DNA of 63,904 bases, the filler included, from Folioceros fuciformis (Eukaryota): assembly GCA_049999805.1 (NCBI GenBank). It is 6 parts of 6 records of this genome, joined end to end, with 100 filler letters (N's around TTAATTAATTAA, not from the genome) between each part and the next. Parts side by side here need not be neighbours in the genome. Positions count along the whole stretch, not along the records: positions 32,495 to 44,721 come from JBNGIO010004582.1; 5 more parts are not named here. One strand, given 5' to 3'. The translations under genes were made by a program, and so were the position numbers. Positions 9,231-61,002 of the stretch are shown piece by piece. How positions within the stretch are numbered: position 1 is the stretch's first letter; each line of letters starts with the position of its first letter. The notes beneath the pieces are model-generated. The model worked only from the letters and a program-made list of their open reading frames with translations, ran no database searches and was not told the origin of the DNA.

Positions 9231-10278
9231 TGCAGATACGCCTAGAGGAGCTTTGGAATCATGCCGCGACGCAATGCTACTTCTAGGGGCAGACACGGAT
9301 GCAGATTTTTCAGGGAATCTCCCGCTGAAAGTCAACCATCTGGACACGCAGCGCACATCTCCGTTGAGGCTGCGTGCTCCCCTAGAAGGGCAGGCGCCCG
9401 GTGGCAAACCCTCCCCAATCCGCGTTGGTTTCTACCTACGCAACGCGGAGGCCCCTCCGACGCGCATCGCGCCCATGATTCCTATGCCCCCATGTGTCAC
9501 GCATGCTGCGCGATACAGGATTCCAAGACGCGCGAAGCACCTGCAAGGCACAAAGACAAACCTGACATCAATTCCCTAAAGGGGCTGAGGAAAATTCTCG
9601 ACAGATCACAGAATACCCTCAGCCGCGTGGAGAGATTGCTGTCTAGCTTATTGTCCTCCCAAGCCCCCTCTAGGATCATCGCCCAAGGCTGTGCCACAGG
9701 CTCTCAAGTTGGTCAACCCCCAATTGATGAAGCCAAGACAAGCACCCAGCAAATTGCAGAATTTCTGGGCCAAATCTTGGCCACTTCATCAAGATCAGAC
9801 AGCCTCCACTAGATCCTTCCGCTGCAAGGGAGTAGCAGCAATTGAGAGCACCAGATCTGAACCGGCGCGATGCATTCCGCGTTCCCTGCCAAGGCCTCAC
9901 TTGGTGCTCCCCCATTGGCCCACCTGGAACACCTCTTCATGTAGTTGGGACACGTCCGTTAGAAAAACCCTAATCACACGCTGGTTTTAGGGTTTGTAGC
10001 TACATAACCGACGCACCCCTACGTTGCAATTACCCCTGGCGAGACCTATAATTGGGCTCAGGATCCAGCAGCCACCACTGTTGATGGCCCCTGAACTCTG
10101 CGCCCAACTAGGTCTCGATGGAGACAACACGACGTGAGTAAGTGAGACAGGGACAGGCAGCAGTGAGACCCACCATCACGGCTGCATAGCTTAGGTGTTC
10201 ATGTTCACCGCTGCACAGCTTAATTCCCTCATTTGTGGTTTCCAGAACCTCACACTACACCCTAATCCACAATCAGCT

Positions 10279-13200: not shown

Positions 13201-14577
13201 GCGCAAGGATTCACTCAAGTGGAAGGGCTGGACTACCAGGAAACATTCTCACCTGTAGTTCGCAGCCAATCCATTCGCCTCATCCTTGCTTATGCCACAG
13301 AGTTTGACCTTGACCTCGAGCAAATGGACGTATGCACTGCCTTCTTGTATGGGATCCTTGAGGAGGAGCTGTATATGTTTCAGCCTGAAGGCTTTGAAAA
13401 CCCTGCACACCCGCATCAAGTTCTCAGGTTACTGAAATGTATCTACGGACTGAAGCAAAGTGGCAGGGTATGGTATCTTACAATGCATGTTTACCTAATC
13501 AGCATTGACTTCGTTCAGAATACTGCTGACACAAACGTATACATGCTCATGAGAGGAACCTCTACTGTGCTCCTTGCTCTCTACGTCGACGACTTGATCC
13601 TTGCTACAAACGACCATGCACTGTTAGCAGACGTAAAGAAGTAGCTACACCAGAGGTTTGACATGAAGGACATTGGAGAGTTGAGGTACTGCCTAGGCAT
13701 TCAAATTCTGCGAGTTCGCGATGCTGGGATCATGTATATACACCAGAGAAAGTATATAACTGAAATCCTACGCAAGTTCCATCTAGACCAGGCAAGACCT
13801 GCCACGACTCCATATGCAGTTGGCACCAAATTAACTCGCCGGCAGAGCCCACAAACCCCAGATGAATTGAAGGACATGGAGGGCGTACCTTATAGGCACG
13901 CAGTGGGTAGCTTGTTGTTCGTCGCCAACTGGACACGGCCCGATATACAGTACGCTATCAGCACGGTATCCCAATTCCTTGAGTGTCCCGGGAGAATTCA
14001 CTGGACAGCAGTGAAACGAATTTTTCGTTATCTCCAGGGCACGATAAACTATGGCCTCATGTACAGGAGAAGTGGGGACCAACGACTCACCTTATCTGGT
14101 TACTCAGACGCTGATTGGGCCTCGGATTCAGACTCCAGGCGTAGCATTTCCTCTTATTGTTTTCATCTTGCTTCAGCAGCAGTCACCTGGAGCAGCAAAA
14201 AACAGACCACCATTGCCCTTAGCTCCACTGAAGCTGAATATAAGTCGCTGATTGAAGCAGCCAAAGAAGCAGAGTGGGAAAGAAGTTTCCTTACAGGTCT
14301 TGGCCACCCGCAACCAGATCCCACAATTATCTTATGTGACAATACTTCAGCCCTGGAGCTTGTATCCAAGCCAACCTTCCACGCACGAACGAAGCACATC
14401 GAAGTGCACCATCACTATATTCGAGATCCGGTATCCAGGGGCATCATCAAGGTTAGTCACGTAAGTACAGACTCAAACACGGCAGACATTTTTACAAAGG
14501 GTTTGCCCAAGCTCCCCCACTATCTACATATGCAGGGGCTTGGCCTCAGTGACTATTCTGCCCACATTGACACATGA
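10279..14577 (+). pseudogene. Copia gag-pol polyprotein with one in-frame stop (TAG 13642-13644)
   Basis: YNVWRVRMK gag, CNWCGLPGHWAREC knuckle, WYLDSGAT protease, WHARLGH..CEPC and RTDNGTEF integrase, LYVDDL RT, YSDADWA..RTKHIEV RNase H. The same frame continues on both sides of the stop. Confidence 0.95.
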
Positions 14578-30098: not shown

Positions 30099-31469
30099 TT
30101 ACTGCCGCTCTATGACTTGTAGAACCTTCTTGATAATCCGCTGCAGAGCTGATGCGCTAGATGTGCATTGTGGGTCTGCAAAGCAAGAACGTCCCTCTTC
30201 AGCTGCTCTTCCCAACCTAGGATCTAGAGGAACTCGCCCAAGAAAAGGCACATTCATTGCTTTCGCCATCTTCTCTGCACCTCCGGCACCAGCATAGAAC
30301 ACCTCGGAGCAGGCAAAGACGGAGAGCAGATGAGGAGCGTGTCGTTTGATCTCATCCAGCACTTGGTCAGTAACATCCTCCTCTTCCCCACTATCTGAGA
30401 ACTTCTTGAACTCCAGGCTTTCTAGTGGCTGTTGCAAGGAACTCATGTTCTCCACAACACCGAGGACAGGGATTCCTACTTTTCTACAGAAGTTAACCTC
30501 TTTTCTGACATCGATGAGGGACACTTCTTGCGGGGTAGTCACTATGATTGCCCCATCAACGTTTGTAGCCTTCAGATACTGTGCTATAGAAATGTGCTCA
30601 TCTGAGGTGCCGGGAGGGGCATCTACGATAAGGTAATCCAAGTCCCCCCAGTAAACATCCTTCAAAAACTGCTTGATCAAACCATTCTTCCGCGGACCCC
30701 TCCAAATGACAGCCTCATCTGGATCCGACAGCATGAACCCAATGGACATGACACCAAGATTATCTTCCACATAAACAGGAGACCAACCCAGGTTACTCTG
30801 ATGTATCTCTTGACCTTCGAGACCTAACATCTTAGGTATACTAGGCCCACATATATCGATGTCCAGCAGCCCCACTTGCTTGTCTCTAGCAGCAAGCGCA
30901 AACGACAGCTGCGCTGCAAAGGTGCTCTTCCCAACTCCACCCTTCCCAGACAGCACCAGCACTTTATGTGCCACGGTACTCATACGATCTGCTATGTCGA
31001 CTAAGTCTGAAAACACAAGGTCAGCTTAATTTTCCTCTTGCTACTCACAGAGGTTAGGGATTCACAGCCACTCGGTCAGACCATTTGAACACAGCCCGAC
31101 CGCACACATCTCAACACAGCTGGACAAACACGAACCTGGATCAGGACCCTTGGGAGCCGTGGCACAAGCCTGCTGATTAGGACATCCCTCGCAGGCCGCT
31201 GCTTTTCCAGCTGTGTCAGCTTCCGTCCCAGGACAATCTGCCACAAGATACATCCATGCGATCCGGTCAGTACGCCTGCTGCGTCGCAGAATTTCCACAC
31301 CGCCTACTCAAACATGAGTGCTCCTCCTCCAGGCACACTCTCCAGCACACCGAAAGAGAATTGAAGCCTTCATTCAATTGCTTGAGCTACAAGGCACGCA
31401 GCAAGTACGTGGATTAGCGTCCTCCGGGACAGCGCCGAAGGCAAGCTCTTCGTTACCGCCATTCCCCAT
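30099..31469 (-). CDS. NBP35: Cytosolic Fe-S cluster assembly factor NBP35 (3 exons)
   Basis: [25 protein letters not shown]-terminal cluster motif, [10 protein letters not shown] Walker [27 protein letters not shown]. Confidence 0.97.
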
Positions 31470-31836: not shown

Positions 31837-32394
31837 CTACAAAATGTGGCAAAACTCTTTAATCTCTTGTCTCCTCTTCATTTTCTGAATGTGAAAACAA
31901 CTGCCAATTCGACATTGCGCACAACCTGGTTGACGCTTTGGTTCCACATCTTTGGTCTTGAAAGTTTTGGGTTGAGCACCTCCTCCTTGAAGCGAGAAAA
32001 TGGGCTTCCAATGCAAGTCTTCTTTCTTTGATTCATTGGATTTAGTGCGAAAAAAAAACACAACAACCGTGATATCTTCATGAAACTTCCTTCGATGGCC
32101 GATCCCAATTTTCAAAAGATCACTATAACTCATACGGTGTTTCCTTGCAGCCTCTTTTAGAGCCACTTCCACAAGAATTCGAGCAATATCCTACAAACCA
32201 TTTGAGCAAGAATAAGAGACGATAGAAAGTTAACGATAATTTTGCAAGAAAAAAAAAATGTAGCATACCTTTTGACCTGTTTTAGCAATAATATCTATTG
32301 CACGTTGATTGTTTATGTATTGCCAAAATCCACGAGTTGCAATCACAAGGAATTCGTCATTTATCGAGAGCAGACGCCCCGATACATGTGCCTC
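31837..32394 (-). CDS. C-terminal two exons of a divergent clade-D PP2C-like protein (5' part lost in gap)
   Basis: DEFLVIATRGFWQYINNQRAIDIL|DIARILVEVALKEAARKHRMSYSDLLKIGIGHRRKFHEDITVVVFF resembles the PP2C.D C-terminal signature. Confidence 0.8.
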
Positions 32395-33497
32395 NNNNNN
32401 NNNNNNNNNNNNNNNNNNNNNNNNNNNNNNNNNNNNNNTTAATTAATTAANNNNNNNNNNNNNNNNNNNNNNNNNNNNNNNNNNNNNNNNNNNNGCTTAA
32501 TCAAATGCCTCACGTGACCTTCCTACGTGTTCAAGGTGGGAGAAAAAACTTGTGATCTTGCTCACGTATTTAAGGAGGAAAAGCTTCCTCTCAAGTGGAA
32601 AAAAACACCTTATATCGTTCCAATGAAAAAAAAAAAAAAAAAAAACAAGCTTATGCTGTAGCTTAGGTACTCATTTATGCTTGCTCTAGTCTAGTTTAGG
32701 GTCTATGATTTGGATTTTTTTTTCTTATTATCTTGATTATATATTGTACATATTATATGATCCTATATATTGTATGATCATATAATATATATGATCAAAT
32801 ATATTTAATTTAATTTTAATATAACTCAATTATTAACCAGTTACTATTTGCATATGATTATTTGATTAGTTGACAACACATGTTGCGTAAGGTGTAGAAG
32901 CTAATCCTTCACATTGAAATAGAGGCAAAAAGTAGAAAATAAGTGAAAACACTAAAATTGGATTTGCTTTGAAGAAGGAAACTGAAACAAACGAAGATTG
33001 GTTTTGCTTTGAACAAGCTCAATTAAGAGGCTTCTTCCCACTCTTAAAACAATTCTCTAACTTCGAGTTGTGAATTTATGTATGTGGCTTTGCACACCGC
33101 ATTGTCTAAGGTGGGTGGAATAGCTCCAAGGGATTGCTAGGTTAATTGCATGGCAAAAAATAGATGAATTGACTTGATTGGCACTAACCCATTTCTTTAT
33201 AAACAAGTATTAGGGCTTCAACATTATTACGGTGATTGTGAACATTTTGTAGTTCTGCAATCTGCAATCTACACCCACACATTACCTCTTAATTTGTAGG
33301 CTGAACTAAATGGCTTGCACACAAATAGACCTAAGAGGGGTCTCAGCAATAAAGGTAACTTGAATGAGTGAGGTACCACAACTCCGTATAACAACTGGTT
33401 TATGATTACACTTAGAGGCTACTTTCTCTTAGCAACTTGCATGCTTTTAACTTAAAAGTTGCATATGTAGTACTTAACTTCCAAGGCCTTCTCTTAC

Positions 33498-33737
33498 TAG
33501 TTGACATTGCCAATTGCACTTCTCTATAGTAGAATATGTGTCTAGTTAAGTTATTGCTAATTGTACTTTTGTGTATTGGAATTTGTGTCCAGTGAAGTTA
33601 TTGCTAATTGCACTTTTGTGTATTGTAATATGTGTCTAGTTAAGTTATTGCCAATTGCACTTTTGTGTATTGAAATATGTGTTTAGTTAAGTTCTTGCCA
33701 ATTGCACTTTGGTGTATTGGAATATGTATCTAGTTAA
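33498..33737. repeat. 47-bp AT-rich tandem repeat, ~5 copies
   Basis: Unit tagttaagttattgctaattgcacttttgtgtattggaatatgtgtc starting at 33543, 33590, 33637, 33684, 33731, plus a degenerate copy at 33498. Confidence 0.92.
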
Positions 33738-34149
33738 TCTAACACTCTAATCTACTCTAGAATCCACTCACGACACGAGAGAAGAAGGCTACACGGGATA
33801 TGAACAGGGCCTCATAAACAAAGAAGGGTGTATCCACGAAGGGGGAGCAAATCATACTATGGAAAACTTTGATCCAAAACCTGTTCTCTGGGTCAATGAA
33901 TACTTGGATGTATCTTAAACGTAGAAGACGGTGGTCAGCGTTTTTCCTTCGGAAATCCAATGTATACTTGCTCCTAACCTTGACTACCAATAAGTTGGTT
34001 CCAAGACGCTGCAACACACCTGCATTGCGAAGTGGGCTAGAGAATGCACTGGCATCAAATCAAGTAAGCAATCCTTTAAACTTAGTCGGTATTTCTCATG
34101 TAATCATTTGGGCTCATTGCTAGTCTTAGGTTTGGGCCCCAATCAACAT

Positions 34150-34360
34150 GGGCCTCTCTGGTGTACCTGATGCGCCTAGGTCTATGCCATGGCCTAGTCT
34201 GGGTGCTTGGCACGCCCAGGTGTGCGCTAGGGCCTCTTCGGGGTGCCTAACGCGCGCAGGTGTGAGCCAAGGCCTCTCTATGGTACCTTGCGCGCACAAG
34301 TCCACGTAAGGGCCATCCTCGGCTATCTGGCATGCACATGTGCGTACTAGGGCCATCGTT
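34150..34360. repeat. Diverged GC-rich 40-bp tandem array with phased GGCC
   Basis: GGCC at 34151, 34191, 34231, 34271, 34311, 34351. Confidence 0.8.
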
Positions 34361-34555
34361 CGTAGTTCCCCATGTGCCTTGACGTCCCTCGCGTGCACTA
34401 GGCTGCGTCAGTCGTGCATCATATGCATCTACTAGTTTTCGACTCTCAAAGTCTCTGTTCGACAACTTTACAAACTGGCTGTCGAATCCTTGTAGGCGTT
34501 TGATATAGCGCTTTCTTTCATTCGGAAAGAAATTGTCATTAGTGTGACGACGAGA

Positions 34556-37500
34556 ATGGCCGAACAAGTTGAGAGCAGCAGATCCGTACCCGATGATGCA
34601 ATTTATCTACACCAAAATTGATTCAGTACCACATCAAGAGAGCTATCCTGCGCTATCGGTTTGGACGATGCAACACCAGGGGAGACAGAGAGATACATGG
34701 TGGCCGACGATGAGGACCTTTGTAACAATGACAACATTGGTGACCATCCAGATGAAGATGATGCTGAAGAGGCCTTTGCCCAAGAGGCCAACGCCGAAGA
34801 CAAACCAAACGAAGATGACAAAGACCAGAATGTCTTCCAAGAATTGGCCAGCAAAGGAGCATTGAAGCGGTCCTCAAGTTCATCCAAGAAGCAGAGTGCT
34901 GAGAGTTTACTTCAAAGTCTTGATGCTCTTGGGAGAGAATCGAATACAGCCAGAAGAACAGTAATGGTTGAGGAAGATGAACTAGATGTTCCACAAGAAG
35001 AAGACCTAGACCTCCAAGTCATAGTCGCAGACTCACTCGGGGGGCGCAAGAGCAAGGGAAAGAGGAGGACTGGTTGAAAGAAAAAAGATGTCAGTGTAGA
35101 CAAAGAACCTCCATTGAGACGTGTTATCACGAAGGCTGTTCTCACGGATAGCGATAGGGTGGGTAGGACATTGCAGCACAATGACCCAATCAACTTGGTG
35201 CGGGAATTTGCTCATCAGAAACGATGTATTCCACACACAAACATGGTTGCCATCAACATGCTTCAACCAGCGGACTACTTGATAAAAGATGTGCAAATAC
35301 ACCGGGTCGACGAGTCGTGGGGGAAACACTTACTAAGAGAGATAAAGAAGGGGCCGGTACAGGAGGGCGTCTTGCCCTTACTGTGTATGATCGACCCAAA
35401 AGAGTGCTTATCGATACCTGACTTCGACCGAGAGAAATTGAAGAAGCAGAAGTACACAATGGGTGTACTCGGAGGCAACCACAGCTTCTACGCATTTCAA
35501 TGACTATATGCAGAGGACCCAAAAAACTCACACTTCCAATACATGGAGGCGCACATATACGGAGGCCTTACCTAGAAGGGAATGCGATACCTCGCAATAG
35601 ATCACAATGTGAAGGCAGACATCTAGAAGAAAATGTCATTCATCGAACAAGTCCGCAACATCCATGATGAGCTGAAAATTGCAGCCGAGCAAAGAGTGTC
35701 TATAACAATGATATGGAAGTATGACATGTATAGAATGTTGGGAGTAATCGAAGATGCCAATGATAGAGATGAGAAGCAACGGCTTGTAGTCCAAAAGACA
35801 ACTGTGCTTTGTATTGCAAGTGTCCACCTCATGTCTAGGAAAGGGTGGATGAGGTTTTTTGCTTGTGGGAGAGAGGGGAACTCCTTGAACAAGGAAACAA
35901 GAAGAAGGCAAGCAAATAAGGCAAATCTAGGAGAACAAATGCAAATGTGGAGTCCTCAGTCCGTGACCCTAACCTTATTATAAAACCTAGGCATGCGATT
36001 GCATGGAGAGTTTTCTAGGGCAAGCCACCTGGAGAAGCGGGAGATCGTACCATGATGTCTGCATTGGAGAAAATTGTCAAGGGAGAACTTACTGTTAGAG
36101 GGATGAAGACCTGGATAACAAAAGCAAAAAGTTAAATATCATTCAAACNNNNNNNNNNNNNNNNNNNNNNNNNNNNNNNNNNNNNNNNNNNNNNNNNNNN
36201 NNNNNNNNNNNNNNNNNNNNNNNNNNNNNNNNNNNNNNNNNNNNNNNNGCGCATCTTTTGTAGAAGTGGAGGAAGAGTATCCCAAGCATTCGACACCAAA
36301 GGACATCGCCAAATTTCAGCCTGTTTTTGACCACATTGTAAGGAGGGTTTTCTGCAAGTTATTGGTTTTTGTGAATGGCGCACACTTGTGTGCACCATTC
36401 ACATGCTATGATTTAACACGTACGTTGGCTGGTATGCAGACGTTGAAATAAGCTAAGGAGTAGATAATTCCCTATAGCTTCAAAGAGCGGATAAACGTAT
36501 TCAAGAATTGGAAACGAGTGGAAGACCTTCAACGCGAACTCGTAGAGGAGGACAACAATGCTAAATTATCAACATTCCAAGTATGAAGCAACAAGTAGAA
36601 AGTGAAGTACCAGGTGATTACTGGTGATTTGCAAGAAATGGCGAGGTACTTGGGAAAGTGGGAGTACAAACTGCTTATCTTGGATCTTCCATGGGGGAAC
36701 TACAGTGAAGCATGGGACAAGGAGCTTTTTGCAGAAGACTTGGAAAAAATATTGGAAGGGTTTTTAAAAGTTATTAAGAGTCAGACCTTGTAGGTAGTAC
36801 GCCTTCACAGTTGTGCGTCCAAGTGCTGTACTCTGGATGTAGCTTGAGCTATGGATAATCAGATTTTTTTCTTCGCGGACAAAAAAAAGTATGCATGTAT
36901 GAGCCGAATCGGATGCAAGTCATGAGAGACGGGCTACGAAAGTGGTGAACGAAACGGGGCGTGTACACAACAGTTTGGGAGAAGGATAATGTTATCGTAG
37001 AAGAGGGGATATACAAAAATTGCGAATTCATGACACATGGTTATGGTGTTCATCCAATGAATGAAGATATTCGGAAAAACAGTGCTCTGAGCAATAGTGC
37101 GGCCAAAGACATTGGAGCGATGCCTGGTATCATAAAGCACAATGCCATCATCAAGAAACTATTGAACGTATTGAATGACAGGCGAGTTGTCAATCCCTAT
37201 CAAAAGCCCCTTGGTTTAATGGTGCTCCTTTTCGGTCTCTTTAGCGATAGAGGTGAATGTGTGATTGATGGGTGTGCCGAAAGTAGAAGTGAAGTGCTTG
37301 CCTCAATTTTGGAAGGGTGGACCTGTATAGCCATCGATGTAGAGCAGCGGCACACTATCTTCATCGAGCAGAGAATAACTGGGCACGAAGTGTTTCCATT
37401 GGATGAGGAGGAGTTGACGACCAAGCCGCATAATAGGGGCCACTCTATATTCTTTGCTCGTGAGGTTGCAAGCGGAAGGTCAGTTAGACCAAGAGCTCAA

Positions 37501-37731
37501 ACATTGTAAATGGTGCAGGGGAACACTGCACCTCTGGATCTGCAAGAACTCAGCCAATCTCAAGGGCACGTAAAGAAGAAGAGCAAGGGGAAAAGAAATG
37601 AGAGAGTGAACACTAAAGGTCAAGATAAAGGGAAGGGACTGGAAGAACAGCTCGGTGATGAGCCATGGGAGCCAGACCATTTTGAGACATTCTCAACCGC
37701 AGCTTCACCAGGAAGATTGGCAAACAAGTAA
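34556..37731 (+). pseudogene. Decayed gene: acidic N-terminus + ParB-like domain + beta-class amino (N6A/N4C) DNA methyltransferase
   Basis: One frame from ATG 34556 to ~35980 with scattered stops, containing VLGGNHS...YLAIDHN..MSFIEQV. After a 100-N gap: VITGD, LLILDLPWG (motif IV), TTVWEK, NPYQKPLGL (motif X), VIDGCAESRS (motif I), CIAIDVE (motif II). Confidence 0.75.
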
Positions 37732-38289
37732 GACGAGGCAAGTATGGCTAGGGTCAATGAGGAGGGAGGGAATGACATTATTGTGCCCATGATAGAATAA
37801 CCAGAATCTCCGCGATTTTAAGGGTAGGAATCGTTGAGAGGTAAGATGGGAAGTTTTTTATATCGAAGGCGCATGGTTGAGAGTGCCTTAGAATTCGCTA
37901 CTCAACATTGAGTGTGTATTTTATAAAACACTAATGGACAACATATGTTTGTCATGACGAGACCTCCCATGAAAGTAGTTGTTTTAAATGCGGGGGAGGC
38001 TTGTGGTCGACGGTCGCTAACACTATATGTGCACGTTTTTAGCTTGTAATGTGATGACCTCTAGCTGTTGGAAAAGACGAAAGGTGGCTTTCAGGAGGAA
38101 GCCGATATTTCAAGTGACATTTTATAAGGACTTGGGCTAGGCAACCTTGAATTTTTTTCCCCCCTTTGTTCAAGTTTAAGGGAAGCCAATGTGGGAAAGC
38201 CTTTAGAGCAGACGCGAGGAAGGGAATAGTTGACAACACTTGGATAAGCACAATATAGCCAATGGAGAGTTGGATGTATTCTTACGTAA

Positions 38290-39065
38290 GTTGTCTCTTC
38301 TATGATGTTTTTCTTGATCTCTTGAATTGATCTTACTTTAGGGGTCTATTCTACAACCTTTTGCTTGGTCTCCTTAAGTGATCTTACTTTATGGATCTTA
38401 TTTATGATGTTTTGGTTGATCACTTGAAGTGATCTTATTTTAGTGGTTTCTTTTATGAGGTTTTGCTTGATATCCTAAAGTGATCTTACTTTAGGGATCT
38501 CTTCTATGACATTCTATTGGATCTCTTGAAGTGATCTTACTTTAGGAATTTCTTCTATGACATTCTATTAGATCTCTTGAAGTGATCTTACTTTAGAGAT
38601 TTCTTCTATGACATTCTATTAGATNNNNNNNNNNNNNNNNNNNNNNNNNNNNNNNNNNNNNNNNNNNNNNNNNNNNNNNNNNNNNNNNNNNNNNNNNNNN
38701 NNNNNNNNNNNNNNNNNNNNNNNNTGAAGTGATCTTACTTTAGAGATTTCTTCTATGACATTCTATTAGATCTCCCGAAGTGATCTTAGTATAGGGGTCT
38801 CTTCTATGATGTTAAGGTGTCTTTTATATGATGGTAAGGTGTCTCTTCTTTAACGTTCTGCTTGATCTCCTGAAGTGATCTTACTTTAGAGATTTCTTCT
38901 ATGACATTCTATTAGATCTCCCGAAGTGATCTTAGTTTAGGGGTCTCTTCTATGATGGTAAGGTGTCTCTTCTTTAACATTCTGCTTGATCTCCTGAAGT
39001 GATCTTACTTTAGGGGTCTCTTCCATGACGTTCTACTTGATCTCATAAAGTGATCTTACTTTAAG
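38290..39065. repeat. 51-bp tandem repeat array spanning an N-gap
   Basis: Core gtgatcttacttta recurs at 51-bp spacing (e.g. 38480, 38531, 38582), with some units expanded by short insertions. Confidence 0.92.
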
Positions 39066-39823
39066 CTTCCTTGATGTTCTTCATGACCACAAAATTAGCT
39101 TGAATGTGCCTCTTCCTTATTGACTCTTTCTCTCGAGCCTTGGTCCATGGTTTATTATCCATAGATGTGGACACATATTCCTTGTGATTTGTCATTTTGG
39201 TTTACTATTGCTGCAACTTCAGCAGCAAGAGTCTAGTCATGTTGAGACTGCTTTCAATGTCTCGAGTTGAGGTAAAGATTTTCCAAGTTCCATAACATCC
39301 ATACCTTTCCTTCATTTTGATTCTTGTTATAATTACTATAGAATGTCACAAGGATATATAGTTAACAACCATTTTTCTTTTATCTTAGTAAACATTAAAT
39401 ATTCACAAAATCCTACATTGTAGAAGAGTATAAGGATGGCCCTTCCTTAGGTTATCCTAAACCTGTAATGCTACTTCACTTTGATAGAAGTACCATAATC
39501 CAGTTATAAAAGTAGAAAATATTTTACAATAAAATAGATAAAATAAGTAACGTCTGGAGTAGACGATGATAGCCCCACGTCTTTTATGACATACATATAC
39601 TAGGTACTAGTTAAATACAAATATCGTATAGAATAACTCGAGCGAGGCATGATAAGACGTGGACCTCTGATCAAGCTGCGTAGTGACTTAAAACCCACCT
39701 CAAAACCTGGTGAGGCCGTGCAGGCACTGAGGACAACGAAGTACTCAAGCTCAGAGATCAAGTGTGGCTGGCAAGAGAGCACATGAAACTGAGGGACTGT
39801 GTTGGCTGTCCTCCAGGCTCAAT

Positions 39824-42800
39824 TCACGCAGGAGGGCACGTCCAGGCCGAGGCAGTGAAGAGGCACAGATTCTTCCAGCCCAGTTTCAGAGTGCCTCTCT
39901 GCTCCGCTAGGGTGTAACCCTCTCCAGCAAACATCCCGAGCAGCAAAGCTGCTTGAGTAGCAGCGTTGCCACTCAAGGACACAGCCTGGAATCCAGCTTG
40001 AGCAAGATGCTCGGTCCACCGGTCGAATTTCACCTCCCCGGTGCGAGCAGGACCTCCCACTGCCAGAATATTCTTGATTTCGCAGCTCAGCAGCTGCTGC
40101 TCCACGATGTGCCGCTCCGCGTGGTCCTCCGGGTAAGATGCCAGGGAATCGAACAATGCAGAGTAGTAGTGCAGGGCTTCCACGAACCTGTTTAGAAATG
40201 TGCCAGCGTGGCTCAGATCCTGCTCCACTATTGTGACCACCTGGAAGGAAGGCGGACAGTATGTGTCAAGGTCTGCAATGTGGGTGTGACATGCATATTG
40301 TGTGCGTGCTATGAAGTGTGGAAGGGAGTTCTGATGGTTTTGGTGGTAGTACCTTGGGGCGAAGACTGTGGAGGAGAGCCAAGGTGCGGGTGTCGGATCC
40401 TGTGACATCGTAGAGAGAATGATGGAGCCAGTGGATGGCCACTGTATCTCCTGGGCACACCCTGAGCGCTCGGGCGTCGAGGTTGCCCACCCGGTCCGCC
40501 ACTGGGAAGAACTGGAAGGGCAGGCCAAGGGTGAGAGCAAAGTCGGAGAGCCTTCTCCCTGTGGCTTCCAGCGCTTCCTTGCTGGTGCCTAGACCAGTGA
40601 TCTTGAGGTGGGGCGGCCCACCAGGTCTGGAAGCAAGGATGTGGAACAGGGCTGGCCACTGGAGGCCCTGCATGATGTCGAGATCAATGATATGAACTCT
40701 GTCTTCTCCCTCAAAGGCCTCCAGGATAGCCTGGTTGGATGTGAAATGCGAGAATTTCACAAACGGACAGACATCGTTGAAGACTTGGAATGCAGCCACA
40801 ATGTTGTGGTTGGTAATGAGTTGAATGCCAGGCAGCGGAGGGCATACCCCCAAGCAAGAGCTGATGAGCCTGCTTGCCATTGCTTCTGCGAAGTATGCTG
40901 CAACTCTGTGCACAGAGTTGCCATATGGAGAGGCCAGCTCCGAGAGCTGAGGCAGGATGATATTGGCCTCGTCCAGGTTGTCGTTGGACACTGCCTCGGC
41001 ACACTGCAGCAGCAGGCCGATGAGATGCAGGCCCTCACTGTCGCAGGCAGGGGTGGCGACGTCCGCCATGGTAGTGTCACAATCGGAGGATACCCCAGTA
41101 CCTTGTCCTGCACTGTTCTTACCCTCTGCGTGGGCTGCAGTGGCTGCCATGGAGTGGTGGTGGCTTTCCTCAGCTGCCGTCGGAGTTTTTTGAGCCATGG
41201 ACGTCCTGAGGACAGCTAGTGGACTGCCATCGGAATTGGGATTTTGCGTGTCGGCAGCTGCAACAACGGACTGATGACGATCCGCCATGTTGGAGTTTTG
41301 ATCAGGACTCAACATCTTCTGATTGTTGTTGTTAGCAGGTGAGGATCCCTGTGCCGGTTTGAGAGCCGCAGCATCTGCACCCTTGGACCCAGCTGGTGAT
41401 TCAGACGACTGTTTGTAGTGGTGAGCGCGGTTCATCCTGTTGGAATCTGAAATCTCCTTCAACGGGTCGATGTACACCCCATCCCTATTCTGTATCTGGG
41501 ACTGGTGTAGCTGCTGCCGCTGCTGCCCCAAGGACGAAGGCATCCTCTGATCTTGCCCGAACCCCGCAGCTTGTTGATACACAACTCGCCGTCCGTCATC
41601 CACGCCCTGCCCGACCTGCGAGCTGCTCCGAGAGCTCATGCTGGACATTTCCTGCTGCCCCATCCGGGAATCTCCCCGCGGGCTGGCACCAGAAGTGACA
41701 CTCTCTGGTGGTGACCGGACCAGGGTCTGGTGCGGCACTGAGGAGTTGCGACGGCCAGTAGGGCTCATGCACCTCTCGCCCTGGAGCTCTGAAGCAGACA
41801 GTCGAGGACTTGCAGCAAGCTCCGACTGCTGTGGAACGGTTACCTGATAGATTGCACGCTCAACTTCCGGCCGCTTGTCCCCCTGGTAGCCTGTAGTCCG
41901 ACCTGGGGTACTGATGGACTCATGCTGCATGTGCATGGTCTGCTGCACCACTTCTCCCCGGTGCTGCGGGAACAGAGCTCCCAGGTGCTGCAAAAGCCTG
42001 GCCGCATCGCCTGCCGCCAGTTGCTGCTGGTGCTGCTGATGCTGCGGTTGGAGGGAAAGCTTGAGACGGTCGGTACTACGTGTGTCCATCTCCATGAATG
42101 CATGCTGGCCTTGCCCCTGGTGGGTGATGTGAGTCCCATAGCCAGCAGAGAGGACATTGGTGAAGGCCGCCTCCCTCCTGCGCTTGAGAGGGCCCCTTCG
42201 TGGGTCTGGGCAGAAGCGATTGCGGTGATGAGGAGGCACATGGAAGTGGTTGTGCTGAGGAGCGGGAGCCTGAGTGCTGAAACAGTTGTTGTTGCTGTAT
42301 CGGCTTCCCCCGTCGTCAGAGAAGGCGACAACGGCGTTGTTGTTGTTGTTGTTGTTGCCGTGGACGGCATAGCCTCTGCCTCTGCCGTAGTAGTCAGATC
42401 GCAGGCGGGAGACGATGAGCGGGCCCAAATGTGGATTGCACTGCGACAGCGTCTCGTACACAGACCGCAGCAGCTGGTGGACGGGGATAGTGGGCATCAC
42501 CTCCATGAACTCGCTCATGATCCCGTCCAGCCAGGCCACCATGGCCGCCTCGTCCATGCTCTGCACGCTTCCGGTGCTCCCCAAACTAGTGTTCCCCTGC
42601 TCATCCCGCTCCATCTCCATAATCTGCTGCCTAACAGCAGTAGTTCCCATCTCCTGCCCATGGAAAAAGCCCAGCTGCTGCTGCTGAAGCCCGGCAGCGG
42701 ATGCTGCGAAGTTGGCGTTGAAATGGTAGCCGAGGTGAGGGAGCGGGGCGCGGGGAGCAGGGTCCCTGCAGTGCCCCGGTCCGCAGGGAAGAGAGTAGTC

Positions 42801-43385
42801 AAGGGAAGAAGAAGGAAGCGATCCCGGGAAGGAAATGTGGGAGGAATTGGAATCCAGGGAAGGCACAGCGTGCATCTGCATGCCATTGCTGAAAACTGTG
42901 GGCAGTGCCTGGGAAGAGGGAGAGAGGCCTGACCAGAAGGCAGCGGCGCCCGGAGCAGAAGCGGCAGCAAGAGCAGCATTGGCATTGGCGCTGGCGGCAG
43001 CGTCGCCCGGAGCGTCATGGGTGTCGGAGGTGATGACGCTAACGGAGGCAGCTGAGGCCGGGGAGGAAGACCCCGAGGCCGCGGTTGAGTCGAGACACCA
43101 GGGGCGGGGGAGCGAGCCCAAATCCAGCAGCGAGATCGGGCAGTGCGAGAGCGGGCGCGCGCGGTTGGGACCATCCACCTCCGCCTCGGCCGAGTCGTTG
43201 CTGTGGCAGGCGCTCGACACGTCGCTGAGATCGGTGCGTGCAGCGGCGGCCATGGCTAGCGAAGGCCCGCCGTCATGCAAGGTGTGCGAAAGGTCCCAGG
43301 TGCAGCCCAGGGCAGCGGCAGCCGCAGCCGCGGCCTGGTACGCGAGCGCTTGCTGCGACGTCCAGTTGCAGAAGGCGGCTGCCAT
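39824..43385 (-). CDS. SCR: GRAS transcription factor SCARECROW (exons 43385-40353, 40240-39824)
   Basis: [65 protein letters not shown]. Also the SCR-type N-terminal AWLDGIM..CNPHLG motif and a single intron after RPK. Confidence 0.95.
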
Positions 43386-44626
43386 GATCGAGGTCGTTCA
43401 CGCCCCGAATTGCCGTGCCCTGCTGTGCCCCCGTTTGGCGTGTGCCGAGCACGAGGCCGCCACCACCATGTCCCTTCTCTCCCTGTTACAATCACAGGTA
43501 GGAGAAGAGTGTGAAGGCGAGCTTGGGCTTGATCTTCCATGACAAAGCAAGCAGAGAAACAAGCAAACCAAGGAGGGAGAAGAGGAAGGAGAGCAAGCGA
43601 GTAGCAAAGGAAAGGAGAAGAAGGAGGACGTGGTGGTGCATGGCAGAGAGACAGAGAGCGACTTGACATACCTGGGAGCGCCGCGGTGGAAGCAGGGAGG
43701 GGGCCTGGCGTGGAGGAGCGCGGCGGAGTCCCGATTCCGCCCCCCACGGGTGCGGGCTGAGTTTTGTGGAGGAATCGAATGAGGAGACAGAAACAAGCCC
43801 GGAGGAGTGCCGGTCCCGGACGCTCCGGCCTTTCCCTCTAGACATAGAGAGTGGATGGAGCGGCAGCAGGGAGTACAATCGAAGGGCTCTCACAACCCGG
43901 GCCTGCCCTGCCCTGCCCAGCCCTGCCCGGCCCGTACACCGCCGGACCCTAGCTGCCCTGCTGCTCTTGGCAAGCTCTTGTGCTCTGCGTTTGGCCCTTG
44001 CATTTGCCATCTGCCTGGAGCACTCGGCCTGCGCCTGCGCCTGCCTTGTACTCTAGTACGAGACGCAGGAATCAAATGTGGCGGCACCGGCCCCAGCCGG
44101 GGCACCGGCACTCGGCAGCCTTGTCATTTGGTGCCATTTAGGTACCCATTCCCATTTCTTTAATACTTTCCCCTCCCCCACTCGCCCCGCCTTGAAAGTG
44201 GGAGCAGGACAGGACGAGGAACGAAAAGACTGGGCTTTGGGGACAGGAGGGAAAAAGGAATTCATGCTGTTGGGGCAATGAATAACCAGTGGTGCAACAA
44301 CAACACCTGATGACATGTGAAAAAAGCTCCTCTCCTTTGATCTCGCCTTCTGTTTTTCTTCCTTCACCTGATTTCCGCTTTGCTGCTGCAGCTGCTCCTG
44401 CCCCGCTCCTGCTGATCCTGGCCCGCTCCTGTTGATCCTGCCCCGCTCCTGCTCCTCCTGTTGGTGGCCGCTCTCGAGCCCAGGGTACGGGGGGAGTCCG
44501 GCCTTTGCCCTTGTGCGGATGGAGTTTTGCAAGTGTTGGTATCCTTACAAGTCGATGATGATGGCCGAGCCCGGCCAGGAACTAGGCAGCTGTCAGGGCG
44601 GAGGCGGAAGCTGGCATCGGAGGGAG

Positions 44627-44677
44627 AGCCAGAGCCGGAACCAGAACCAGAACTAGAACCAGAACTAGAACCAGAGC
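44627..44677. repeat. (AGAACC/AGAGCC/AGAACT)n hexamer microsatellite
   Basis: gccagagccggaaccagaaccagaactagaaccagaactagaaccagagcc. Confidence 0.7.
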
Positions 44678-45928
44678 CCGATCAGAGCGGAATCAAGGAT
44701 CCCCGCTGCGAATAGCAGAGANNNNNNNNNNNNNNNNNNNNNNNNNNNNNNNNNNNNNNNNNNNNTTAATTAATTAANNNNNNNNNNNNNNNNNNNNNNN
44801 NNNNNNNNNNNNNNNNNNNNNACGCACTCGGGGATTCAAAGTGAAAGACACTGCGCTGCGAAGGATACCTGGTTTTCGCACTCTAAACGTTCCATTCCCC
44901 TAAGGACCACTCGATCGTTTTCATTCCCCATTGCAGACTTGCGTGAACTCTGGTTCTTGCACAAGAGACAAATACGCAGCACCACTTAGAGGATACAGCT
45001 TCCCGTATCAAGGAGTATTTGGAAGCTACAGCTCGTTTGGAAGATGCAAGCAGCAAAGAGCACTGAATTAATCACGTCAGCCTTCGCGCTCCTCACCAGT
45101 TTACGAATTGGAATGAGCGGGGAAAAGAAATCGGATATTCAGCTTTGTCGTTGTGGATGGGAACACCTACAATTATTGAGAACTTGTTTGTTAATATCGC
45201 TTCAAAACTCACTCAACCATGGAAGACCCTTGTGGTCAGGCTGTCACTAGACAATCTGCTTCGAGACAAATGTGACTGCCTTGTATCCTCGTTCTTTGCT
45301 GGATACCACCATTACAGCCTGTTCTATTACGTGACCATGAGATAGGTCCATTTGCTAACATAAACGCAGAACCTAAAGCAAATCTTTCTTCAACACCAAG
45401 TCAACATTTGATGTTCCTTTAAATTAGCTTGGCCTTGCAAGATTGTGTGCAGGAAGGAAAATAAGTCCAACGATGGCTGTATGCATAGCCATCATGGTCA
45501 AACTACCAAGATGGCCTTGCCTCCCAAGATGTCCTTGCCTCCCAAGAAGGCTGAAATGAAATTGAAAGCAGACCCTCCTCACAGAACTTGTCCGTGTAGG
45601 ACCGCCTCGTCCTTTCCCAATAAAGGCATATATATCGAACCGTAGCAGATGGTTGCACGAAATCGTGTCCAAATCATCCCGGTAGCCCACTTCGACATAC
45701 ACGCCCTTTCCTAAGTTTCGATTATTTCAGTTAATCAGTAAGTAAAGTGTGCTCACGTTAGACCCGTCCACCTCCTTGCAGTAAGTACATATATGGGAAA
45801 CCGTTCGACACGAGCTGTCCGTGGCGCCGGGCTGCGGCAGCTGCATGGGAAAGCTATGAGCTGCGGCACCGGAGGTGCTGAAGCTTCGCGCGTGGTGGCA
45901 GCGCTCTAGGGCTGTTGCCGTCGGTAGC

Positions 45929-58093: not shown

Positions 58094-61002
58094 TCAGGTG
58101 GCAACCTATTTGCAGAATCGCACTTCTGTGTCTTCTCTTCCAAAGTGTACGCCCTTTGAGTTATGGACAGGTGTCAAGCCTGATGTTGCACATCTTTGAG
58201 TCTTTGGAAGCACAGCCTACGCCCATATCCCAAACAAGCTTAGACAGAAGTTTGCATTTAGGTCCAAACGACATGTGTTTATAGGTTATACACCTGGGAT
58301 TCACGGGTATAAACTTTTTGAACCTGTTTCCATATGTGTTTTCCATGCTCGGACAGTTGCTTTCGATGAACGAGCTGTGTTGAATCTGATGATTCACCCC
58401 TTGTAGATGCAAAGTTAGCTCCAGCACCTGATCAGTTTGATGTGGTCGAACCAAAGTTTTTCGATATTGTTGACTTCCCCTCTGTTGATCCTGATCCTCC
58501 TGTTCAGCCTTCTTCTACATCTGATCCAGTAGCTCCTATTCATTCAGATCCTTTAGATGCTGAGTCGGAAGACCATCTGATTGATCCTCAGTCTCAACCG
58601 GAGTCAGAGCCTTGTCCAGAACCCAAGCTTGGTGTTGATGATCCCGTTGAATATACTCTTCTTATCCTTGAGCCTTATGTCCCGGTTCCTCGACGTTCCA
58701 CTCGTCTTCATCGTGGACGTGACCAGTGGTTGGAGACGCCCTATCAGGCTAAAGACTAGAGGACTCATCGGCCCTTGGTTCCACCTATTCCTCAGCTAAT
58801 GGGAGCTGGTCATGAACCTCAATCTGTTCATGAGCTCGTCCAATTGACTGTGCAGCCAGGTTATGAGCCACAGTCTTATCAGGAGGCTGTCATTGGTCCT
58901 GCATCTCAACACTAGAAAGCTGCTATCACCTCAAAGTATGAATCCCTTCTTCACAATCACACTTGGGAGCTTTGTCCCCTCCCTAAGGGAAGGAAGATCG
59001 TCAGCAGCAAGTGGGTATAAGTATAAGGCTGACGGGACTATAGAAAGGTACAAAGCTTGCCTTGTTGCTAGAGGATTCTCTCAGGTGTCGGGGTTAGACT
59101 ATCATGACACTTTCTCTCCGGTTGTCAAAGCATAATCTCTACATGTCCTGTTTTCTATGTCAGCATTCTACAGTTTGTTTATCCATCAAATGGATGTTAA
59201 GACCGCGTTCTTACATGGAAAGCTGGAAGAAGAAATTTATATGCAGCAGCCTGAAGGCTATGAGGAGAAGGGACGTGAAGACTGGGTCTGTAAGTTGTTG
59301 AAAACAATCTATGGCCTCAAGCAATCACCAAGGGCCTGGTATCAATGTATTGACGAGTTCTTACTTGAGCTTGGCTTCAGAAAGAGTGATACTGATTTGA
59401 ATGTATATTTCCTGCAAGAAGTCATAGGCTTTGTGGTGTTAGCATTATACGTGGACGATTGCATCCTACTTGGCACAGACCTTGAAGGGATAAACAAGGT
59501 GAAAGGGCTCTTATCTGGCAGGTTCGATATGGTTGATGTAGGAGAACTCTCATACTGTCTTGGTACGCAACTCCTGCGAGATACATCAAGTGGCACTTTG
59601 ATTATTCACCAAGAGAAATATATTCACGATATGTTGTTTAAGTATAAGTTGACAACCGCTAAACCTGCCTCAACTCCAATGGAAGCAGGCTGCAGGCTTA
59701 CTGCTGAGCATTCTCCCATTACTGATTCTGAAAAGCTGGAGATGGAAAGTGTACCTTACTCTCAGGCTGTTGGGTTGCTTATATTCTGTTCAAATCAGAC
59801 AAGGCCAAATATATCACTGCCTGTTAGTATGACTTCTCAATTTCTAAAACAGCCTGGAAGGACTCACTGGACAGCAGCGAAACGGATAATGAGGTACCTT
59901 AAAGGGACTAGCAGTCATGGCATACATTACACGAAGCAACAGTACGAAGGTGAGTCACTTATCTTGTTAGGGTACTGTGATGCTGATTGGGCAGCAAATC
60001 CAGACTCCATGTCACTCGCAGAAAATCATGTATTCCATGCGAGGACTAAACATATTGAAGTGCATCATCACTTCATTCGTGGAGCTGTATCCTCAGGCCA
60101 AATACATTTGGAGTATGTCCCTACAGACTCAAACGCAGCAGATGTGTTAACAAAAGCACTACCTAAAGGTAAACATCATCAGCTTAAAGAAGCTTTAGGA
60201 GTCCTGGACTCCTCTTACCTTTCCAAGTAAACAGAAAGGCAGGCCCTGACTGTCACTGTCATTGAGAGCAAGTCATGGACTAGACCTAGAAGGCCGCAGA
60301 CATAGAGTCACTGTCAGAGTTAGAGCTACTACTAACTGCCATGTCAAAGAACACACTGTGTGTATCCTCATTCAGTTTTCCCCTCTACAACTCTAAGTGT
60401 TTGGGGTCGAGGTTGTATCTTGTTGGCTTCACTTCTGTGTCATTGCCCTTTGCAGCATAGTCCGTGTTAGCCCTCTTGCACCTCCTCTGATGAAACTTTG
60501 TCAGGAGTTGATGACACTGCAGTCAGGAAGTTAGTCTGGATAGCATCCTCAAACCACAGCAATAGTGTGCGTAAGATTAGAGGCTAGCTAGGCAGACTTA
60601 CTGTAGAAAGAAATAAAATTCCTATTGTCACCGCCCCATCTGAACCAGTCTTCTCTCACCATCTCTATCCGAGTAACAGTGCAAATGTAAGCTTCAGGGG
60701 TAAGAGGGTTGTTGATCCCGTCTTCGTCAGTCACCAGTCGTACAGTCTTACTCCTATGCCCCCTAGGCAGCATGTAGGGTCTCAAATTGTGTGGCACTGG
60801 CAGGACAACATACTCGTCTTCAATCTGCGGAGGAAGCTTCACAGCGTTAAGAGGACCCATTGGTGAGAAGCAACTGCGTTCAGTGGGAGCATGCGCCGGA
60901 GGAGTGGGAGCATGTGATGAAGTGCCTGAGCCTACAGCTGGAACACCAGAAGCCTGAAGTTGTCTTCGAAGAGCTGAGATTTCTTGAGTGAGGAGAGCTT
61001 CT
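58094..61002 (+). mobile_element. Decayed Ty1/Copia internal fragment (integrase C-terminus, RT, deleted RNase H, 3' region)
   Basis: TPFELWTG..FGSTAYAHIP, HQMDVKTAFLHG, YGLKQSPRAW, LYVDDC, YCDADWA, ARTKHIEV; stops and frameshifts in 58300-59150. Confidence 0.93.

Follow-up and report, generated by a model that had tools for sequence, protein, structure and literature searches.

Could a land-plant genome hold the remains of a mobile element that once carried its own DNA-binding and DNA-methylating gene? The question is raised by an approximately 7-kb island next to a SCARECROW (SCR) gene in the genome of Folioceros fuciformis (assembly GCA_049999805.1), within the 63,904-nucleotide stretch of DNA analyzed here (hereafter, the window). 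The original prediction, made from the nucleotide sequence, described the island as AT-rich DNA containing exon-like relics, tandem arrays, a gene for a ParB-like protein with a DNA methyltransferase and a relic of 17-amino-acid repeats, and interpreted it as part of a giant DNA transposon or endogenous viral element with its own DNA-binding and methylation system. We found that the gene in question (34622-37731, plus strand) is a pseudogene, dead and heavily decayed, which, as judged from the sequences and modeled folds of its relatives, descends from a gene fusing a ParB/sulfiredoxin-fold module to a PF01555-type DNA amino-methyltransferase. The locus is probably (we would put the probability at roughly 0.6) the relic of an accessory gene of a large DNA transposon, of the ParB-methylase kind described in algae.

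A decayed ParB-methylase gene with relatives in Ginkgo and Ceratopteris

The region 34622-37731 reads as one long frame series interrupted by stops, which were translated as X. Its three read-through translations, P0001 (34622-35983), P0002 (36251-36946) and P0003 (36820-37731, in a different frame), contain 5, 7 and 4 in-frame stops, respectively, or 16 across the whole read-through. Seven stops (35501, 35573, 35624, 36584, 36596, 36791 and 36946) fall within blocks that align to relatives, so that introns are no explanation for them, and the reading frame shifts at least once between 36811 and 36889. Decay has also reached the conserved motifs: the sequence GG-S-HS-A-EARR, near-invariant in relatives, reads GGNHSFYAFQ-stop in the window copy, and the S-adenosylmethionine (SAM) loop of relatives, D-x-C-x-G-S-G-S, has degenerated to DGCAESRSE. 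The gene encodes nothing now, and the island is hence currently without an encoded DNA-binding and methylation system. Thus, the ParB-like/methyltransferase gene of the original prediction retains its domain identity, which is supported by the homology and the folds of relatives, but not its coding capacity.

From 5' to 3' on the plus strand, the pseudogene starts with an N-terminal region that is first acidic and then basic (34622-35218; GRKSKGKRR at 35042-35068), in which the ATG at 34697 is a candidate start and the first in-frame stop is at 35075. The relic of the ParB/sulfiredoxin-fold domain follows at 35219-35782, with the motifs GGNHS (35471-35485) and DHN (35600-35608) and the stops at 35501, 35573 and 35624. 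A probable helical linker in another frame (MSALEKIVKGELTVRGMKTWITKAK), for which the evidence is weak, occupies 35986-36148 and runs into a 100-N assembly gap inside the pseudogene (36149-36248); the linker-side profile match at 35836-36120 has an independent E-value of only 0.36, with a profile that contains the window's own P0001. Beyond the gap lie the middle region and the N-terminal half of the methyltransferase (36467-36811; variant of motif IV, DLPWG, at 36683-36697; stops at 36584, 36596 and 36791), its C-terminal half in the shifted frame (36889-37479; NPYQKP at 37192-37209 and DGCAESRSE at 37267-37293; stop at 36946) and a lysine-rich C-terminal tail of the read-through (37480-37731; stops at 37507 and 37729). 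The sequences 36791-36850 (frame 2) and 36880-36940 (frame 1) both align to one and the same block of relatives ('WR-x-VV-x-HS...'), a double match which suggests a small local duplication with a change of frame in the methylase domain rather than an intron.

Because Pfam is silent on the window copy, the assignment of its domains rests on relatives. With P0003 as the query, HMMER was run exhaustively against 1.84 billion representative proteins and yielded 21 matches at E ≤ 1e-3, 19 of which carry PF01555 at E ≤ 0.01, with 18 above the Pfam cut-off. One of the matches, P0013, corresponds to gene model Gb_37443 of Ginkgo biloba. Four close paralogues accompany it in Ginkgo, and the Ginkgo paralogues are mutually 58-95% identical, as expected of an amplifying family. 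Three pieces of the window gene are colinear with Gb_37443, residues 125-208 of which correspond to P0001 (33% identity, 1e-10), residues 350-458 to P0002 (5e-7) and residues 492-596 to P0003 (31%, 2e-14), so that the ParB-like and methylase domains lie in one colinear frame series both in the window and in Ginkgo. A profile search with the N-terminal half retrieved 26 relatives, namely, 6 Ginkgo models, KP509_1Z236600 of Ceratopteris richardii and 19 jgi/ena proteins, the latter sitting in 90% clusters of up to 43 members. When N-terminal relatives were compared with the window by tblastn, all 24 matched 35219-35782 (E 3e-7 to 6e-18, 33-43% identity), the five other matches in the window being at chance level (E 0.4-0.9). 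Similarly, 16 of 19 family proteins, mostly relatives of the methyltransferase domain, matched the window, all within 35369-37479, with the methyltransferase-domain matches at 36467-36811 and 36889-37479. Intact relatives hold strongly conserved motifs (GG-x-HS-x-EARR, DHN, NPYQKP and D-x-C-x-G-x-G), and some of the family gene models, such as P0026 and P0028, are truncated or patchy.

The two top-scoring matches of the P0003 scan, P0004 and P0009, were set aside: they are tandem-repeat proteins that lack PF01555, and their scores sum many repeats of 27% identity. Their repeats, of about 145 amino acids, align to 37327-37580, at the end of the methylase piece, and run through the stop at 37507. 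This similarity is probably a summed chance match, the less favored alternative being a satellite derived from the ParB-methylase family. Outside plants, Gb_37443 was used for a pattern scan of the genomes of 185,579 prokaryotic species; of 600 pattern matches, none was confirmed as a relative, the sensitivity of this search being limited. In tblastn searches against phages, the methyltransferase piece matched weakly (best E 0.06; 350 records at E ≤ 1), and the ParB and middle pieces had no match at E ≤ 1. A phmmer search of the C-terminal piece against PDB sequences returned chance matches only (E ≥ 1.7).

Folds of the two modules and a proposed transposon role

The methyltransferase half was represented by an AlphaFold2 (AF2) model of the relative P0016 (predicted local distance difference test score [pLDDT] 81; predicted template modeling score 0.77). 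In Foldseek comparisons, this model matched CcrM (3.6e-15), the rotifer methyltransferase N4CMT (2.5e-12) and RsrI (8.9e-12), as well as M.BceJIV, M1.HpyAVI and PvuII, with 185 PDB matches at E ≤ 1e-3. At the sequence level, a methyltransferase profile which includes strongly PF01555-like rows of uncertain origin matched CcrM in the PDB at 2.9e-21. The window copy keeps the permuted order of the β-class, with DLPWG upstream of NPYQKP and of the D-x-C-x-G-x-G position, and the alignment with relatives agrees. The usual catalytic tetrapeptide is (D/N/S)PP(Y/F/W/H). In the family, the motif is D-[LI]-P-[R/H/Y/W], which takes the forms DLPRG, DIPHG and DIPYG among relatives and DLPWG in the window; the family has another residue in place of the first proline, and non-aromatic residues fill the aromatic position in some members. 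With such an unusual tetrapeptide, the sequence reveals neither which base is targeted (adenine at N6 or cytosine at N4) nor even whether there is activity. The SAM loop of relatives follows D-[GLM]-C-[SCA]-G-[STA]-G-[STAG], and a product of the window copy, with DGCAESRSE at this position, would be incapable of normal SAM binding. Placed by alignment with its relatives, the window copy is best read as a decayed descendant of PF01555 enzymes.

For the ParB-like module, neither the window nor the relatives match Pfam ParB_N. The sole Pfam signal is a match to DUF6551, which is listed as a phage fusion partner of the ParB fold (bioRxiv 10.1101/2025.10.10.680097); it occurs in 14 of 25 family members below the threshold (best E 0.006, the cut-off not being reached). 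A search of PDB sequences with the N-terminal family profile gave a lone chance match to CYP51 (E 0.32), and fold comparison was needed to see ParB. For this purpose, an AF2 model was built of the relative P0036 (alignment of 25 rows), which is 40.5% identical to window positions 35324-35671 by tblastn; its mean pLDDT is 71.5, with values of 72-91 over most of residues 200-440. The Foldseek matches listed below E 0.001 in the PDB are ParB of Myxococcus and Bacillus and Noc (E 1.6e-5 to 3e-4), the alignment covering about 290 columns with template modeling (TM) scores by target of 0.40-0.45 and spanning the N-terminal nucleotide-binding domain and the following helical DNA-binding part. Next come sulfiredoxin (TM 0.54-0.66, root mean square deviation 3-4 Å) and then PadC, KorB and SbnI. 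Compared with viral models in BFVD, P0036 has 17 matches at E ≤ 1e-3, mostly phage ParB, and among the matches listed are ParB-like entries of giant viruses (CroV, Orpheovirus, Sylvanvirus and Faunusvirus; up to E 8e-3). Canonical ParB proteins carry the nucleotide-binding Box II motif GERRxRA, and sulfiredoxin carries GGCHR. The corresponding Box-II-like motif of the relatives, GG-[SCN]-HS-x-EARR, the columns of which are nearly invariant, departs from the ParB GERR and resembles the sulfiredoxin motif. The model thus supports a 'ParB-like' identity of the family at the level of the fold.

In an Atlas feature search with residues 225-430 of the Ginkgo protein P0025, a ParB_N cluster ranked 18th with a score of 0.93. 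The top ranks were taken by unannotated eukaryotic clusters, in which Mollusca, Porifera and Cnidaria are the commonest phyla, and by fungal DUF3723, a hint that eukaryotic genes, some of them possibly mobile, commonly carry divergent ParB-like domains. In fern members of the family, the ParB module is preceded by a β-rich domain (P0036 residues 31-103, pLDDT 80-91), which could be a targeting or reader domain; no counterpart of it was found in the window copy.

The window holds a dead copy of a multi-copy plant family whose intact members consist of an N-terminal region, a ParB/sulfiredoxin fold with a helical, helix-turn-helix-like DNA-binding part and a C-terminal β-class PF01555 domain, which would produce N6-methyladenine (6mA) or N4-methylcytosine (4mC). 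The ancestral protein, as an accessory protein of a large DNA transposon, would bind and chemically mark the DNA of its own element, and the 47-, 40- and 51-bp tandem arrays and AT-rich DNA around the pseudogene would be non-coding remains of that same element. What leads to the transposon-accessory reading is that the family occurs in several copies in Ginkgo and also in fern-like sources, that its members outside Ginkgo fall into large clusters of near-identical proteins and that it includes decayed copies such as that in the window.

Tandem arrays, flanking DNA and neighboring genes

The window consists of scaffold pieces joined by linkers, each of the form N44-TTAATTAATTAA-N44, and the linker at 32395-32494 forms the left limit of the piece that carries the island, which is thus cut at its left end, as had been noted. 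This piece (32495-44721, 12.2 kb; JBNGIO010004582.1) contains both the island, which begins at the scaffold end, and the GRAS gene, with two intervening 100-N gaps, the one at 36149-36248 within the pseudogene and a second at 38625-38724. The base composition reported for the island was borne out, with a GC content of 0.30-0.37 at 32001-34000 and 0.33 at 38001-39000 versus 0.56-0.65 across the GRAS gene.

The leftmost part of the island (32495-33505) is an AT-rich flank (GC 0.34) with no recognizable coding sequence. A run of 20 adenines (32626-32645) lies there, 130 bases from where the scaffold begins, followed by an AT-rich micro-array of 17-bp period in which palindromes overlap (32750-32805); the two may mark the tail end of a retroposed sequence or be no more than low-complexity DNA. 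The predicted 47-bp array is present at 33506-33737 as a direct tandem array of 4.9 copies with 87% matches, without CpG and without dyad symmetry. It is followed by a stretch (33757-34123) that is open on both strands (100 amino acids on the minus and 101 on the plus strand) and that had been taken for an exon-like relic. No homologue supports coding capacity: the stretch has no match in Pfam or in the ParB-methylase family and its 100-aa open reading frame (ORF) has no usable Atlas match, and by our rough estimate chance alone would yield about 1 ORF this long in 7 kb of DNA of such composition. Directly upstream of the pseudogene lies the array with a 40-bp period (34126-34410), GC-rich (0.60) and composed of about 7 diverged units, of which Tandem Repeats Finder alone gave 2.2 copies; its phasing is real, the identity at lag 40 being 0.527, whereas 2000 shuffles gave no value above 0.433 at any lag from 1 to 80.

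Downstream of the pseudogene, 51-bp direct tandem arrays with higher-order periods of 124 and 153 bp extend over 38280-39063 and are broken by the second gap; the same 51-bp array is present on both sides of this gap and is carried on in the sequence that lies between the gap and SCR (38725-39823). The period equals 17 codons, and the original prediction had seen here a convergent relic of 17-aa repeats. However, most units have stops in every frame and no ORF of at least 60 amino acids exists in any frame between 38346 and 39599; we read the array as a minisatellite and not as a relic of a repeat protein. The three arrays bracket the ParB-methylase relic, recalling the picture in red algae, and are not claimed here as ParB sites. 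Their interpretation as parS-like inverted-repeat sites was considered and found unsupported, the dyad symmetry of the units not exceeding that of shuffled sequences.

The neighboring gene (39824-43397, minus strand; two exons seen, 40266-43397 and 39824-40588) lies outside the relic and provides context. Its exons match Pfam GRAS at 1e-73 and 2.6e-41, and the best match among PDB sequences is Arabidopsis SCARECROW (1e-100), with SCL3 far behind (9e-47), which agrees with the original identification of this neighbor as SCARECROW; by sequence, the gene is SCARECROW-like. The other scaffold pieces of the window carry ordinary plant genes (for an NBP35-type ParA ATPase, Tim44, a histone deacetylase and Pex16) and Copia-type retrotransposon ORFs, and no DNA common to the island and these pieces was found. 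One Copia-type ORF (10195-13644, plus strand) contains gag, integrase and RVT_2 (8.7e-56) and continues past one stop at 13645-14577, and a second Copia RVT_2 fragment (6.7e-48) is located at 59136-60230 (plus strand), again on a scaffold piece other than that of the island. The preceding scaffold piece encodes, at 30099-31025 on the minus strand, an intact single-exon ORF of 308 amino acids for an NBP35/NUBPL ParA-type P-loop ATPase (PF10609, 6.9e-92); this is an ordinary gene of iron-sulfur cluster assembly and, despite the 'ParA' in its family name, is unrelated to the ParB-like relic.

Competing explanations and known systems

Several observations weigh against a transposon origin. As the original prediction had stated, the island shows neither a transposase nor a reverse transcriptase, and the six-frame Pfam scan of 32495-39800, with stops read as X, also found no integrase or capsid domain; inverted-repeat searches revealed no terminal inverted repeats in 7.2 kb, only AT-rich palindromes and short chance pairs, and no defined termini or target-site duplication were seen in 32495-39800. 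Only 2.1 kb of scaffold precedes the gene, so that the structure of an element is not visible and elements of 20-30 kb would not fit. The 63.9-kb window contains no second family copy and no shared flank elsewhere. Pfam detects neither domain in the window copy, whether in single ORFs, in read-through pieces (E ≤ 10) or in six-frame translation (E ≤ 0.1). The branch that leads to the window copy in an N-terminal-domain tree measures 7.6 changes per column and lies outside the groups that contain Ginkgo and Ceratopteris; a branch of this length allows no conclusion from its placement. The pseudogene bears no sign of heavier methylation-driven decay, its observed/expected CpG ratio (0.58-0.66) being the same as that of the SCR gene (0.64), and the dyad symmetry scores of the array units were reached by 824, 448 and 110 of 1000 shuffles. 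Finally, the likeness to algal accessory genes is one of domain content, as given in published descriptions. The proposal of a mobile element with its own DNA-binding and methylation system has a good published precedent, but no element is visible and the gene is dead; the labels 'giant' and 'endogenous viral' are unproven.

The pseudogene could instead be a decayed duplicate of a non-mobile host family, which an ancestor of vascular plants would have gained in a single acquisition and which would now serve the host, for instance, in chromatin marking; the minisatellites would be unrelated to it. The lack of element structure of any kind fits this scenario, as does the existence of domesticated eukaryotic PF01555 enzymes, at least as Marchantia DN4MT1 and rotifer N4CMT have been described, and the strongly conserved motifs of intact relatives indicate purifying selection. 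The latter, however, is also expected of the gene of an active transposon, whereas the family, with six models in Ginkgo (58-95% identical), with clusters in which as many as 43 nearly identical members are grouped, with truncated models and with a decayed copy, looks like one that amplifies and decays; we therefore consider a host family rather unlikely. Still less probable is a relic of a giant or other large DNA virus, of which the ParB-methylase gene and non-coding DNA would be the sole remains. Fusions of the ParB fold to PF01555 are reported as frequent in phages and prophages (bioRxiv 10.1101/2025.10.10.680097), the ParB model of P0036 matches viral proteins (17 in BFVD at E ≤ 1e-3, with giant-virus entries among the matches listed), and the methyltransferase piece touches 350 phage records, although weakly (best E 0.06). 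Against this, the scan of 32495-39800 found no hallmark domain (capsid, packaging ATPase, polymerase or primase-helicase), the N-terminal and middle pieces lack a phage match at E ≤ 1, the similarity to phages is no more than any PF01555 domain gives, and the closest relatives are plant gene models.

Contamination by bacterial or phage DNA, or a chimeric assembly in which foreign sequence was attached to the SCR scaffold over N gaps, might be suspected, given that both domains are typically prokaryotic, that two 100-N gaps separate parts of the island from SCR and that the scaffold is just 12.2 kb long. Yet a pseudogene with many stops is unlike the live gene of a contaminant, its relatives are Ginkgo and Ceratopteris models, no relative of Gb_37443 was confirmed in the genomes of 185,579 prokaryotic species, within the limited sensitivity of that scan, and the 51-bp array from before the second gap resumes after it, toward SCR. 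The original prediction had likewise argued from the shared scaffold that contamination is unlikely, and with the relatives and the decayed state of the copy added, we regard it as very improbable. It is harder still to believe that the gene is functional, with its stops and frame changes due to introns, sequencing errors or recoding. Introns might conceivably account for the frame change at 36811-36889 and for the break close to the gap, and in relatives the '...EEM..EF.K' helix, at which many of the models stop, seems to be followed by an intron; nevertheless, seven stops lie inside well-aligned conserved blocks, and residues conserved across the family have been lost (GGSHSAEARR to GGNHSFYAFQ-stop and G-S-G-S to A-E-S-R-S).

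In the published accounts, as far as these go, accessory genes of the ParB-like and DNA-methylase kind have come to light on the transposons of three algal groups (brown, red and green), and the window locus together with its Ginkgo and Ceratopteris relatives suggests that this kind of gene has also spread in land plants. No description of a ParB-PF01555 family in land plants was found in the full-text literature, with most subscription journals and bioRxiv supplements outside the scope of the search. Bacterial-type amino-methyltransferases are so rare in eukaryotes that finding them in rotifers and Marchantia was of note. Should intact copies be active, they would be candidates for the source of non-canonical 6mA or 4mC marks in fern and gymnosperm genomes, a base modification that land-plant genomes are not known to use, and for transposon self-marking. 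A farther-reaching proposition, which we hold to be speculative and on balance doubtful, is that land plants, at least the source plant, Ginkgo and ferns, hold an undescribed mobile-element family fusing a DNA clamp or binder of ParB type to a bacterial-type DNA amino-methyltransferase, intact members of which would still mark their own repeats with 6mA or 4mC as a form of self-marking or anti-silencing. In a bolder variant, plant lineages whose sperm swim might have adopted some copies as host genes, in the way Marchantia did with DN4MT1. The window copy is an inert relic with no bearing on SCARECROW, and the family in ferns, Ginkgo and the source plant is the more interesting lead.

Comparison with characterized enzymes separates the family from several known systems. 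CcrM, M.RsrI and M1.HpyAVI (PDB 6pbd, 1eg2 and 5hek) are the best profile and fold matches of the methyltransferase half and share its order, with the catalytic motif first and the SAM loop last, but they are only about 15-20% identical, lack a ParB module and have bacterial housekeeping or restriction-modification roles. Land plants are described as having few N6A-methyltransferases (Iyer and colleagues, PMC4738411). Like the plant family, bdelloid rotifer N4CMT (PMC8885841) and Marchantia DN4MT1 (bioRxiv 10.1101/2021.02.12.428880) are bacterial-type β-class amino-methyltransferases in eukaryotic nuclear genomes. As described in these reports, however, N4CMT has a chromodomain and DN4MT1 a TSPPY motif and no extra domain, whereas the plant family combines a ParB-fold module with the motif D-[LI]-P-[RHYW]-G; furthermore, N4CMT and DN4MT1 are single or duplicated host genes, unlike the multi-copy, decaying ParB-methylase family. 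Thus, the locus is not a gene of the DN4MT1 or N4CMT type.

In its former working, the locus would have resembled the ParB-methylase accessory genes of algal transposons and the ParB-PF01555 fusions of phages. The Ectocarpus DNA transposon Sola1-1_Ec32, a 21.5-kb element, is described as encoding, opposite the transposase, an accessory protein of 1104 amino acids with ParB-like and DNA methyltransferase domains, and it is in the same source that such a protein is proposed to bind the element encoding it and to mark it (PMC12477816). Shared with the window are the combination of a ParB-like domain and an N4C/N6A methyltransferase in one protein and a similar size (the window read-through covers about 3.1 kb plus the gap); the difference, in a comparison made by description only, is that the Ectocarpus gene lies inside a defined element, whereas the window copy is dead, in a land plant and without a visible element. 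In red-algal Plavaka elements (bioRxiv 10.1101/2025.02.11.637652), PAG2 is reported to combine PF01555 with SET, and PAG3 a ParB-like domain with a 2-oxoglutarate (2OG) oxygenase; tandem arrays of inverted repeats adjoin PAG3, and degenerate copies are in the majority. The likeness to the window thus extends, as far as that account goes, to PF01555 and ParB-like domains on large DNA transposons, tandem arrays beside the ParB-bearing gene and degenerate copies, but the red-algal domains lie on separate proteins with SET and oxygenase domains and are fused in the window family, and the arrays adjoining PAG3 are inverted repeats, unlike the three window arrays, which show no dyad symmetry above shuffles. 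The same domains in the same order, with ParB N-terminal, are described in phage and prophage fusions of the ParB-CTPase fold to an N6_N4 methyltransferase (bioRxiv 10.1101/2025.10.10.680097). These fusions differ from the window copy in sequence, to which they are only weakly similar (best tblastn E 0.06 for the methyltransferase and no match for ParB), and the plant family is set apart from them by long acidic/basic linkers and, in fern members, by the extra N-terminal β-rich domain. Judging from the shared domain order, phage and prophage fusions are the likely ultimate source of the architecture.

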